From Perna viridis (taxonomy: Eukaryota), in the NCBI GenBank assembly GCA_037379345.1, contig CM074516.1, positions 36,555,626 to 36,619,625 of the forward strand: 64,000 bases of DNA, in the 5' to 3' direction. Of the stretch, positions 13,401-22,400 are shown one piece after another. Both the position numbers and the translations under genes were made by a program. The stretch's first letter is position 1. The number at the start of each line of letters is the position of its first letter. The notes under the pieces are model-generated. The model searched no databases. It had not been told where the DNA came from and was given only the letters and a program-made list of their open reading frames with translations.

Positions 13401-16400
13401 GAATGTATTGTCTTACCTACACTGAAACATCATTAAATGTATTTTGTATTCTAATTCTTACTTACGCTCCGTCCATTTTATCCACAGAGTTATAGGACAT
13501 GGATCCAAAATGACATCGAACATCTTTTGATGTTGTGAAAGCACTTCTCGTGTTTTTCTCAGGTGCCCATACAATAACATAGACTTTAGGAAAGAACAAC
13601 AGAACCAGAGAGACAGATGCACTAAGACTTATAGCTATAGATAGTGTGAAAACTCTTGGTTCACTTCCAAAGTAAATAGCAAAAAATCCCAACCAAATGA
13701 CACATGTTGTGTACATAGTGAAGCCAATAAACTTAGCCTCGTTGAAATTTTCCGGAAGATTTCGAGTCTTCACGGCATATAAAGTGCACATGAATATAAG
13801 GATTAGATCAAAACCTAAAGGAACAACTATTCCCATGGTAGTGGTGTTGCAAATTAGTCGAACACGCTTTGTAGCGGGATAGTCCAATTTACAGTCAGCT
13901 GGTTCTATTATTAACATTACTGTAATAACGGCGCATTCGACTCCTACCAGAATACAGGTGATAATTACTTGAGAAGATGCGCTCATAAAACGAGGTTTTT
14001 TAGTAATTATTTTCTTTGTTCCCTCAAGAATTCTCGCTATTCTGTTAGTTTTCGTCACTAGGGCTCCGTAAACCATTGCAAAGGAAAGTCCTGGTAGAAT
14101 TCTCGTGAAATAGCACGTGACAATAGTTGGCTTCGCAACAAGAACAAAGTTACAACAGAACGCTATCAGTATTCCTATCATAATTATATACATTAACTCT
14201 CTCGTTGATGCTTTAACCACTGGTGTGTTGTGGTGTCGCATAAATATAACACTTATCCACAGTGTTACAAAGATTCCAAACGAGGCGATGGCAAGGGCTA
14301 TCATTGCCTCACTGTCGGCCCAACTCATGTTTTCAATGGGTAGTTTTTGGCATGCTGAAATAGAGCCACATTACGATATTTTAATTCAGTTAAAATCATA
14401 ACGAAAGAAACAAAGTAACCTTTCACAAATGCTTTTTAGATTTCAATGTACATTGAACAAATGATCACCTACTGAAATTTCAAATTTCGCTCAAATTTCA
14501 ACTCAGTACTTGGTAACATGCACTTTTGACCTCCATATTGATTTGGATCGAAATCTAAAATAGGAGGTGCACAATGGGAATATGTAATAAGGAAACAGAA
14601 TAGCGGATAATAGATGGGCCCTCTAGTGTTACGGAAGGAAGGAAGTACGGACGGAAGGATGAAATACGGACAACTCTATCACTATATTTCCAAATTGCAC
14701 TTAAGAATAAAACAAATAAGCAAAACTGAGATAAAATGTTTATTAACAAATAAAAAGAAACTCGAAAAACATTTTTTTTTTTTTTTTTTTGTTGTTGTTT
14801 TTTTTTCTTTCGTTTTATCTGTTTGTTTGTTTGTTTTTGTTTGTTTCTTTTTACCAAGTTCTTACTTAACGGAGTTGCCGAACAAAATAGCAATCTTCTA
14901 TACAGTGTTACAACATTTGATAGGATTCTGAATCATTTATGATTAACATAAATGATAAAATTACCAGAATATGAAAAAATTAAAAATCAGTTAGATTTGA
15001 AATTTCATGTATTTAAGATTCTAAACATCATCTTGGTGCCGGAAAAACTTCCTCTATTCAACACTTGTCGACAATTCGAATTATTAAAAAGGAAAGAATT
15101 GGATTTGACATTCTTCACTTTGGAATTCCATTAGTTCCATTAACGAAAATAATCTAAACTTTCAGTGAATACTAATTTTCCTATGAAATTACTTTATATG
15201 TTATTTGTTTCAAAGTCACACAAGAAAATAGTATAGCATGAGTTTTAGAAGTATTATTTTCCAGGACGTACAAGGAGGTGTACCCCTATGCGAATGTGCA
15301 TGACGTCACGTCCGGTGGCCAATGACCGAAAGTGACCCTTAGGTGGGACCGAAAGTGACCGGTAGAGGGAGGGGACCGGAAGTGGACCTTGGGTATGACT
15401 GGAAGTGAACTTAGATGGGGAACCAATAATGGGAACATGGGGATTTTTTGATGTAGGAAGGGGGTCTTAAAGGTTAGGAGGGGGAAACCACCTCCATAGG
15501 TATCCTCATTAAGTGTCCTAATTAGTGTCATTATATAGTATAAACAGGTAAGTATAAAAAGGGGTGTATTATGACAAGAGTTATCTTTCTTTGTTAATAT
15601 TGCTTTTTTTATTTTTACATTATCGTTCATTGTTTTTTAATTATTTTTTATAAATTAATTGTAATTTCATTGTTTTTGTGTAATAATTGAATGGGCACTT
15701 TGAATAGATTGTAAATTTTGATTTTATTTTCTATGTGTTCAATGGATTGTGTAATTTGAATAGATGTCTCACGGATTAGACAGATGTTTTAAACATTTTA
15801 CAGGTGATTTTAATAGCCCGTGTATTGATTTTTAACCACTTTTTATTGTGCTTTATGAATACATTACAGGTGTAAGGACATGTTGTGCAATGTTTACAAC
15901 TAAGAAATAAATTTTTATCATTGTTTTGATTATTTTTGTTTTAAAATTTTTTGTATTTAGTTTGAAATTTTGACTAACCACTAATGATTATACTGACTAT
16001 CGTAAGGTGTACAATTCGAACGTTAATAGCTTTTGAATGGTGTATTGCCTTTCATTTGTATAGTCTATTTGTATAGCCCTAACCCTAAACGTAACTCTTT
16101 CTTGTGTGACTTTATTTCTTTTTACTTTTTTTTTTACATCTAGTACATTGCCTTATTTATCTTACTTCTCATAAGCGTTTGATAGATATAAAGTGTTTAA
16201 TAAGCATCGATAAAATATCGAAGAAATAAAGTCACACAAGAAAGAGTTAGGGTTAGGGTTAGAGTTAGCGTGAGGGTTTGAGTCGGGGTTAGGATTAGAG
16301 TCAGAAAAATAGAATCAGATCAATACGAAAACAGAACACTAGAGACTTGGGATTATAGTTAGTGTTAACACAATAGAAAACAAAACTACCAGAACAAAGA

Positions 16401-19400: not shown

Positions 19401-22400
19401 TAGCTCTAACTTTATCATGTCAGTATCTTTCACCTTAATACAAACTCTTTAAGTCTATTCCAAACACTAACCCCAAACATAACCCAGAACCGAAACAAAT
19501 ACATGTATCTTACCCTTACCCCATAAGTAACTCTAGATATAACTTTAATCAAAGGCATCAAGGTAAACCATCAAAACAAACACTAAACACAAGACCTAAG
19601 TCTAGATCGAACTTTAACCGAAACCTAACCTAGACCTATCTCTAGACATAATCCTAACCCTAACCCTGGACAAACATCAACATCTGATCCCAACCTTAAA
19701 CATAACTCTAAGCCTAACCCAACACTTAACCATAAAATTAACCTTTGAAATAGACCTGAGCCTAAAACTAACGGTTGACTCTAACAATTTTCTTGACACT
19801 AGACCTTATCTGAAACTCTAACCTTAACCTGACCTCAACACTATGTACAACACTATGCGTAACCCAATACTTTATCAAACACTCAACCATACACTTAATT
19901 TTAACCCTTACCCTACCCATTACCACTAACCCTAACCCCTAACCCTAAGCCGAATTTAATCAAAATCATTGACAAACATCAACATCTTACCTCAACCATA
20001 AACATAACCATACGCCTAACCCAACACTTTACAATAAACTAAACCCTTGCCATAGACCCAAGTCTAAATATAACTTTAACCGAAACCTAACCTTGATCTA
20101 TCTCTAGACATAATCCTAATTCTAGACATAACCTTATCCCTAGACAAATACTAAGACCTGGTCCCAACTGTACATCAGAAGTGTAGACATAACCCTATAC
20201 CGAACAATAGATTTAAATGTAATCAAGTGAAGACTTAACCCTAGATATAACCGTATCCAAGTTGGAAGAACTTACCCGAGATCTAACACTAAATCTTACC
20301 CTAACCCATGACTTATAATCCTCAATGTAACACTTATCCTAGCTTTTGCCCTAACTAACTTTAGCCCGTCTTTTCTATGTTTACTCACCAACTTTACCAT
20401 AACCCTATCATAACACATTATCTAGTTTAAAACTGTGACTATTTGTAGTTTGTTTTTTAGGTCTAGTCTTCACTTTTGCTCTTACAATTTTTCTATTGCA
20501 AACCCTAACTTTCTTTAGACTTGTCTTTTGTATGTAAACCGTTACACCTCATCAACCCTAACCCTAAGTCATGTGACTATGTTTAATGTATTCTTAAGGT
20601 CTATTCGGTATTATTGTTCTGTTTGTTTTTCTATTGTTTAGCACTAACCCTTACCCTTTACCCTTACTCTATCTCTAATCCTTTTTTCTGTTTGTTTTTT
20701 TCTATCATATAATCCTAACCCTTGACCCTAACTCCAATCCTAATCTTTGCTGTGGTTGTTTTTTTTTCTATTGTTTCAACACTTATCCTAAGCCTGACTC
20801 TTACCCTGACTATAATCTTTGCTGTGGTCGCTTTTCCATTATCTTATCACTAACCCTTGCCCCTAACTCTAACCCTTATCTATAGTGTTCTGTTTTTCAT
20901 TTTGTTCTATTTCATTTTCTATTATTCTCACCACAGCCCCAACCATGTCTCTTACCATAACTCTAACGCCGACTCTAACCCTACTTTATCCCTGTGTTAA
21001 CACTAACTATAATCCCAAGTCTCTAGTGTTTTGTTTTCGTATTGATCTGATTAATTTTCTATTTTTCTCACTCTAATCCTAACCCCGACTCAAACCCTCA
21101 CGCTAACTCTAACCCTAACCCTAACCCTAACTCTTTTTGTAACTTTATTTCTTCGATATTTTATCGATGCTTAATAAACACTTTATATTTATCAAACGCT
21201 TATGAGAAGTAAGATAAATAAGGCAATGTACTAGATGTAACAAAAATACGAAGAGTAAAAAGAAAGAAAGTCACACAAGAAAGAGTTAGGTTTAGGGTTA
21301 GGGCTATACAAATAGACTATACAAATGAAAGGCAATACACCATTCAAAAGCTATTAACGTTCCAAATGTATACCTTACGATAGTCAGTATAATCATTAGT
21401 GGTTAGTCAAAATTTCAAACTAAATACAAAAAATATTAACACAAAAATAATCAAAACAATGATAAAAATTTATTTTCCAGTTGTAAACATTGCACAACAT
21501 GTCCTTACACCTGTAATGTATTCATAAAGCACAATAAAAAGTGGTTAAAAATCAATACACGGGCTATTAAAATCACCTGTAAAATGTTTAAAACATCTGT
21601 CTAATCCGTGAGACATCTATTCAAATTACACAATCCATTGAACACAAAGAAAATAAAATCAAAATTTAAAATCTATACAAAGTGCCCATTCAATTATTAC
21701 ACAAAGACAATGAAATTACAATTAATTTACAAAAATAATTAAAAACAATGAACGATAATGTAAAAATAAAAAAAAGCAATATAAACAAAGAAAGATAACT
21801 CTTGTCATAATACACCCCTTTTTTATACTTACCTGTTTATACTATATAATGACACTAACTAGGACACTTAATGAGGATACCTATTGAGGTGGTTTCCCCC
21901 TCCAAACTTTTAAGACCCCCCCTTCCTACATCAAAAGGTCCCAATGTTCCCATTGTTGGTTCCCCATCTAAGTCTACTTCCGGTCACTCAAGGTCCACTT
22001 CCGGCCCCCTTCCCCTACCGATCACTTCCGGTCACACCCAAGGGTCACTTCAGGACATACCCAAGGTCCACTTCCAGTCCCACTCCCTCTACCGGTCACT
22101 TCCGGTCACCCAAGCTCCACTTCCAGTCATACCCAAGGTCCATTTCCGGTCCCCCCTCTACCGGTCACTTCTGGTCCAGGGTCACCGGATGTGACTTCAT
22201 GCGCATGCGCATAGGTGTGCACCGCCTTGCACCTCCTGAAAAATGATATTTCTAAAACTCATACTATACTACTCAAGAAGTAGGAGCTGTTAACCAGTCC
22301 ACCGGAGTCCCCTATGTGTACCAGTCAGATCACCGGAGTACCCTTTGTTTACTAGAGTAAACGGAGTGCCCTCTGTTTGTCAGACCTCCGGAGTCACCTC

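Follow-up and report, generated by a model that had tools for sequence, protein, structure and literature searches.

An old Maverick-derived element with a packaging ATPase pseudogene in a glutamate receptor intron of Perna viridis, and indications of a compact non-autonomous family

The DNA analysed here, a window of 64,000 nucleotides of the Perna viridis contig CM074516.1 (assembly GCA_037379345.1, positions 36,555,626 to 36,619,625, forward strand), carries a 7,047-bp element with long terminal inverted repeats (TIRs) at window positions 15227-22273. The question raised by this locus is whether so short an element is what a single deletion left of an ordinary Maverick/Polinton, or whether it belongs to a family of elements that are short by nature. 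The Maverick/Polinton origin is supported by the termini, by a 6-bp target-site duplication (TSD) and by an A32 ATPase that falls inside the Maverick ATPase clade. Beyond this, we lean towards a compact, non-autonomous Maverick family (“mini-Maverick”) that has been amplified and of which the element is an aged and degraded copy. We favour this over a one-off deletion because in public contigs the element's sequence reaches about 100-fold depth, because in diverged copies the ATPase has the same non-canonical neighbours, because the damage in the window copy is unlike that of most copies, and because the insertion itself is found in three samples. The layout of such a family would, on balance, be TIR, telomere-like repeat tract, C2H2-packaging-ATPase gene, small basic gene and TIR. 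The features are as follows (window coordinates; depths are those of public contigs relative to a host exon, as explained below):

14355..23780, minus strand: intron of the host gene, a metabotropic glutamate receptor, with the seven-transmembrane (7TM) exon 13462-14354 on one side and the cysteine-rich exon ~23781-23904 on the other
15221..15226: left TSD CAAGAA, exact match to the right copy
15227..16372: left TIR, 1,146 bp, terminus AATAGT; depth 212-274x exon at 15380-16099 and 13-16x at 16100-16459
16074..16267: TIR-internal hairpin with 47-nt arms and a 100-nt spacer, surrounded by telomere-like hexamers; fold z = -9.8
16373..16430: left subterminal repeat zone, with a candidate deletion junction at ~16405-16460; 16373-16405 resembles the right-hand unit 20739-20771
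16431..16819, minus strand: stretch present in many copies, to which no gene can be assigned; depth 75-128x exon in bins 16460-16999
~17086-16820, minus strand: small basic open reading frame (ORF), broken near its start in the window copy; 6 natural relatives; not PZ
17088..18215, minus strand: C2H2 zinc finger-linker-A32/FtsK packaging ATPase pseudogene, assigned by PF04665 match, tree and alignment to intact relatives
18290..20992: non-coding tract of 2.7 kb made up of degenerate repeats, CCCTAA-like and longer internal ones; depth 42-64x exon in bins 18260-18790
20993..22273: right TIR of 1,281 bp, ending in ACTACT and carrying additional terminal subrepeats
22274..22279: right TSD CAAGAA, exact match to the left copy

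Mavericks are described as having an (AGT)2//(ACT)2 or (AG)3//(CT)3 end motif, 6-bp TSDs and TIRs of 46-1,447 bp (PMC8097293; here and below, papers are cited for those parts of them that were accessible). The two TIRs of the element lie within this range and are identical in 1088 of 1137 aligned columns (95.7%), with a Kimura two-parameter divergence of 0.044, or 0.030 when the first 180 nt are omitted. An exact 6-mer match at a fixed place, as seen in the TSD, has a chance of p ~5e-4 at the local composition. A sequence-only reading of the window had proposed a Maverick/Polinton inside a glutamate receptor intron, with a 6-bp TSD, TIRs of 1.15 and 1.28 kb and AGTAGT-type termini. Origin, intron, TSD and TIRs were all borne out, and of the termini the right one is exact while the left one differs from AGTAGT in a single letter. 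The hairpin is strong, none of 200 shuffles being equally stable, and is mirrored in the right TIR at ~21098-21306. The telomere-like hexamers beside the two hairpins have their G-rich strand pointing inward from either end, which is the reverse of a chromosome end. Rfam gave no match across 14000-24000.

The intron that received the element has GT..AG ends and an in-phase join. It separates the cysteine-rich exon from the 7TM exon of a gene on the minus strand, and domain matches (ANF_receptor, NCD3G and 7tm_3 exons) make the product a class C G protein-coupled receptor, which we take to be a metabotropic glutamate receptor on account of its motifs. Just beyond the right TSD begins a GC-rich 27-bp minisatellite (22293-23497) of 44 copies with a 570-bp higher-order duplication, so that the Maverick insertion point is the edge of this array. 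The letters of the right TSD are host-side, since the string AGAA-GTAGG also opens a paralogous block of the adjacent array at ~22846. The element has no demonstrated effect on the host intron.

What the element encodes is best seen from its ATPase. The C2H2 ORF and the ATPase, which the sequence-only reading had listed as an ORF and a separate remnant, are both present, but they are one fused pseudogene of zinc finger, linker and ATPase, and the ATPase is nearly full length. The closest intact relatives, which came from a search of longer proteins (268-331 aa, 68-73% identity), open with a C2H2 finger or its remnant, followed by the linker and with the ATPase last, and their alignment to the window runs from 18215 to ~17110 across both reading frames. 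Three breaks interrupt the gene, namely a frameshift at ~17730, an in-frame stop at 17569-17571 and a frameshift at ~17302, and the Walker B motif is degraded. Read with an X at the stop, the ATPase matches PF04665 at 26.7 bits, above the cut-off of 22.8. In a tree of 28 rows, from which the frameshifted homolog of locus L082 was excluded, it falls among Maverick ATPases in a clade of 15 rows (support 99/93). Among viral contigs no relative was found with the ATPase alone or with alignment A1, alignment A2 brought up nine remote loci (27-30%), and A2 had no sequence match among solved structures.

The same reading held that the element retains only the zinc finger and the packaging ATPase, and thereby missed the small basic ORF directly downstream of the pseudogene. 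HMMER over 1.84 billion proteins returned two relatives of this ORF and a second search four more. All six are open and have 72-95 aa and an isoelectric point of 9.4-10.2, and four of them share an RGRP core, which we take to be AT-hook-like; that all are open counts in favour of the compact family, with a bias from gene calling. The ORF itself has no match in Pfam or in the Atlas, and its predicted fold is not confident (predicted local distance difference test 44.6). As a diverged PZ, the gene that commonly follows a Maverick ATPase, it was considered and rejected. Faint hints of collinearity came from individual hhalign comparisons (E 0.18 and 0.11). At the nucleotide level, an alignment with the sequence behind the ATPase was marginal in L082 and L008 (3 and 2 of 100 shuffles) and gave nothing for L078 and L004. 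However, the profile-profile comparison with PZ remained at E 0.47, the hidden Markov model did not stand out from shuffles (61-187 of 200), and a frameshift-tolerant search did not find PZ, its score of 39 standing against a null of 35 +/- 5 (26 of 150 shuffles). In the same frameshift-tolerant test the held-out PZ of L082 reached 331 and, once 30% decay was simulated, a median of 81. Applied to the ORF behind PZ, the test has little power, as its control reached only 100 and fell to the null after decay. The multi-copy stretch at 16431-16819 matched neither a Pfam nor a Maverick-core profile.

The remaining Maverick core genes are missing. With profiles built from loci related to the element, a six-frame search found no PolB, integrase, penton, PW, major capsid protein, protease, PZ or post-PZ ORF (best E 1.6), in agreement with the earlier statement that integrase, protein-primed PolB, protease and capsid are absent; PolB reached E 2.7 at best (4 seeds), integrase E 3.6 (7 seeds), and tblastn was blank for both. 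The element is therefore no autonomous Maverick or adintovirus, as it has no protein-primed PolB, integrase, capsids, protease, PW or PZ. Among related Maverick-type ATPase loci with enough flank, PolB lies at most 1.5 kb upstream in 18 of 25 and PZ at most 1.2 kb downstream in 33 of 43, counted without 12 remote loci (L067-L075, L081, L083, L084). The nearest long locus, L082 (68%), has the ATPase followed by PZ, an ORF, integrase, penton, PW and major capsid protein, and lacks PolB before the ATPase; the window element departs from this order directly after the ATPase. L082 8600-15500 lies on a contig of a mussel-symbiont genome assembly and is host-type DNA in which a Maverick has decayed, with another piece of integrase ahead of the ATPase; it is host contamination within a bacterial genome set, and L076-L079 look similar. 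L076 and L082 are the loci nearest to the element, and judged by them its host would probably be a marine invertebrate, likely a bivalve. Maverick-type ATPases without PolB upstream were also seen on the short contigs of L012 (1-727, with a 220-bp inverted repeat ahead), L041, L049 and L054, which could be other reduced elements.

Whether the element has sister copies was addressed with contigs from four of 24 listed sequencing runs, aligned at 85% likeness to 13400-18790, which takes in the left half of the element. Three runs are of DNA type (X1, X2, X8) and the fourth (X11) is by guess RNA; 32 of 12,936 contig records were listed. Summed contig depth over that of the host exon is not a copy number and serves here only to place the sequence roughly two orders of magnitude higher than a single copy. 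In all three DNA-type runs, TIR and interior are multi-copy sequence at 42-274x exon depth: 212-274x for the outer TIR, 166-263x for the ATPase, 75-128x for the small-ORF side, 75-119x for zinc finger and linker and 42-64x for the upstream repeats, with 13-16x at 16100-16459. The depth ratio of TIR to interior is 1.5-2.4, and the most populated likeness class is 90-95% in all four runs. Records 3, 19 and 27, from three runs and with 19-40 other letters, join the ATPase end to the small ORF, and records 7, 13, 23, 30, 31 and 32 join the gene start to upstream non-coding DNA, the right side being shared among copies to ~18300-18460. Thus, the same non-canonical neighbours flank the ATPase on both sides in copies that are 10-14% diverged. 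Moreover, the window copy differs from most of the family depth at three of the four broken ATPase sites: the aligned depth disagrees with it at the stop in 100% (X1, X2, X8), at the second frameshift in 57-74% and at Walker B in 95-99%, the first frameshift not being among the rows shown. Records 2, 18 and 26 span the left junction of flank and TIR with 0-1 differences, the depth there being 73-91% of that of the exon. They come from three samples of three studies, and one of these samples may be the source of the window itself. Hence the insertion is not a recent one but old and common. Interior pieces of the window allele occur in records 2, 8, 18, 24 and 26. The TIR-end pattern had no match in metagenome contigs, and three matches in viral contigs were rejected as chance, since the likeness covered 24 nt only.

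These data give indirect support to the compact multi-copy family that had been suggested from the sequence, in that contig depth and diverged copies with the same ATPase neighbours speak for it. The less probable but serious alternative is that the window element derives from a larger, abundant Maverick by a deletion that happened once or is found in few copies, with a single breakpoint at ~16405-16460 and loss of the remaining genes during or after insertion. Several observations weigh against a compact family and fit such a deletion. None of the 32 listed records bridges 16372-16460, and the depth drops about tenfold there, with 40-65x at 16505 but 4-7x at 16403, which is what a private breakpoint would produce. 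Yet the low-depth zone takes in the inner TIR (11-16x), which is no breakpoint and where the contig alignment skips the repeats at 16235-16283, and the coding-to-repeat transition on the right-hand side dips as well, to 25-32x. The similarity of 16373-16405 to the right-hand subterminal unit, too, makes this side look like a natural arm. The family is rich in internal deletions, with joints in other copies at 1.2-4x exon depth, and records 7 and 32 show a copy diverging at 18298; furthermore, the evidence for the family consists of short contigs, among which there is no second whole element, second TSD or helper. A depth of about 100-fold would, on the other hand, be high for full-length Mavericks, which in vertebrates have a median of 8 and a maximum of 287 copies.

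The gene content can likewise be read in both ways. The ATPase lineage occurs in capsid-encoding Mavericks, because L082 carries capsid genes after its ATPase, and the missing upstream PolB of L082 makes the argument from the upstream neighbour weak for this lineage. Nor is the C2H2-ATPase fusion peculiar to the element, since 23 of 86 long homologs have a C2H2 finger ahead of Walker A. What speaks against a deletion is that the 670 nt following the ATPase hold no PZ. In L008, however, a 177-aa ORF (803-1333), whose motif is presumably that of parvovirus VP1-unique regions, lies between ATPase and PZ. Vertebrate Mavericks have an extra ORF, pm, between atp and pz (PMC8097293). An extra ORF after the ATPase is thus known, and PZ could lie past a breakpoint. 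The parent of such a deletion derivative would begin, inward of its right subterminal repeats, with the C2H2-ATPase gene, and a pm-like small ORF (PMC8097293) would come next. Far less probable than either is that an unrelated TIR transposon captured a Maverick fragment, or that the assembly merged pieces of different copies. Such a chimera would agree with the unusual TIR interior (hairpin, telomere-like repeats), and the junction confirmed in independent contigs is the left one; however, (AGT)2//(ACT)2-type ends with a 6-bp TSD are the Maverick signature (PMC8097293), the two TSD copies agree exactly, all three DNA-type runs have contigs across the left junction, and interior pieces of the allele were seen.

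If the window element belongs to a compact family, its most likely history would be as follows. The source copies would themselves have been short and non-autonomous, with the ATPase and the small basic gene open, and both genes would have decayed in the window copy after its insertion into the intron. The protein-primed polymerase of an autonomous Maverick would copy the short elements from their termini, and the integrase of an autonomous Maverick recognising the same termini would insert them, leaving the 6-bp TSD. Protein-primed replication and the integrase-made 6-bp TSD are established Maverick biology, and integration by a Maverick integrase is suggested here because a 6-bp TSD is the signature of that enzyme. 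More speculatively, the ATPase and the basic protein, if under selection, would most likely load the short genome into helper capsids. That animals have such “Maverick satellites”, i.e., short TIR elements that have repeatedly kept nothing but a selected packaging ATPase and a small basic DNA-binding protein for the capsids of full-size Mavericks, appears rather unlikely at present. The window copy cannot itself be an active satellite, since it is a pseudogenised fossil common to three samples.

Compared to autonomous animal Mavericks/Polintons (adintoviruses; PolB-ATPase-PZ-INT-penton-PW-MCP-PRO), the element has the same type of ends, the 6-bp TSD, a TIR length within their range and an A32/FtsK ATPase that is common to both. 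It differs from them in its size of 7 kb against ~15-25 kb, in the absence of the core genes named above, in the non-PZ small basic ORF after the ATPase and in the 2.7-kb telomere-like tract, which sits upstream of the C2H2-ATPase gene. Repbase includes non-autonomous Polinton-N families. Phage-inducible chromosomal islands and P4-type satellites keep a packaging component of their own to use helper capsids; to these bacterial systems with unrelated proteins the likeness would be one of functional analogy only. Transpovirons encode a helicase rather than a packaging ATPase. They are also ~7 kb long, have TIRs and lack a capsid, and are carried in the particles of another virus (PMC5499653), but they are parasites of protists and mimiviruses, and no homology is expected. 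Closer are the defective Maverick fossils of vertebrates (PMC8097293) and the PolB-less polintons of butterflies that still amplified (10.1101/2025.02.07.637071), which likewise keep their ends, lose core genes and need mobility in trans. In the accessible parts of these two papers, however, the losses are of PolB or by general decay in long elements, and not a reduction to a packaging ATPase and a small gene. The literature searched, with few subscription papers and in excerpt, held no account of Mavericks reduced to a packaging ATPase and one small gene, and an ATPase-only phrase matched only a passage on Tlr1.

Other repeats were observed in the window. A fragment of a very high-copy repeat at 14523-14660 (bin depth ~450-560x exon, many loose ends) is probably the remnant of a miniature inverted-repeat transposable element (MITE) or a short interspersed nuclear element (SINE). 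A dispersed SINE- or MITE-like repeat has three copies with similar translated frames at ~24400-24900, 37020-37400 and 56960-57340. Upstream of the large N-terminal coding exon of the receptor, at 52378-56310 on the plus strand, lies a long interspersed nuclear element with ORF1-like frames, endonuclease (PF03372) and reverse transcriptase (PF00078), which is interrupted by stops or frameshifts.

Should a one-off deletion have produced the element, we are dealing with an ordinary fossil of a Maverick. A short element that keeps a packaging motor but needs neither capsid nor polymerase genes can be understood only through the existence of helper capsids. According to the accessible text of 10.1101/2023.08.22.554363, no virions of Polintons had yet been seen. 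One screen demanded capsid genes and a length of at least 10 kb (PMC11131425), and mini-Mavericks would be filtered out by it for this reason. If a compact family whose ATPase is under selection were proven, this would speak indirectly for spread by way of particles and for a new kind of animal hyperparasite. Maverick satellites, if they exist, would be the eukaryotic counterparts of phage-inducible islands, and they would imply that Maverick virions are made in animals.

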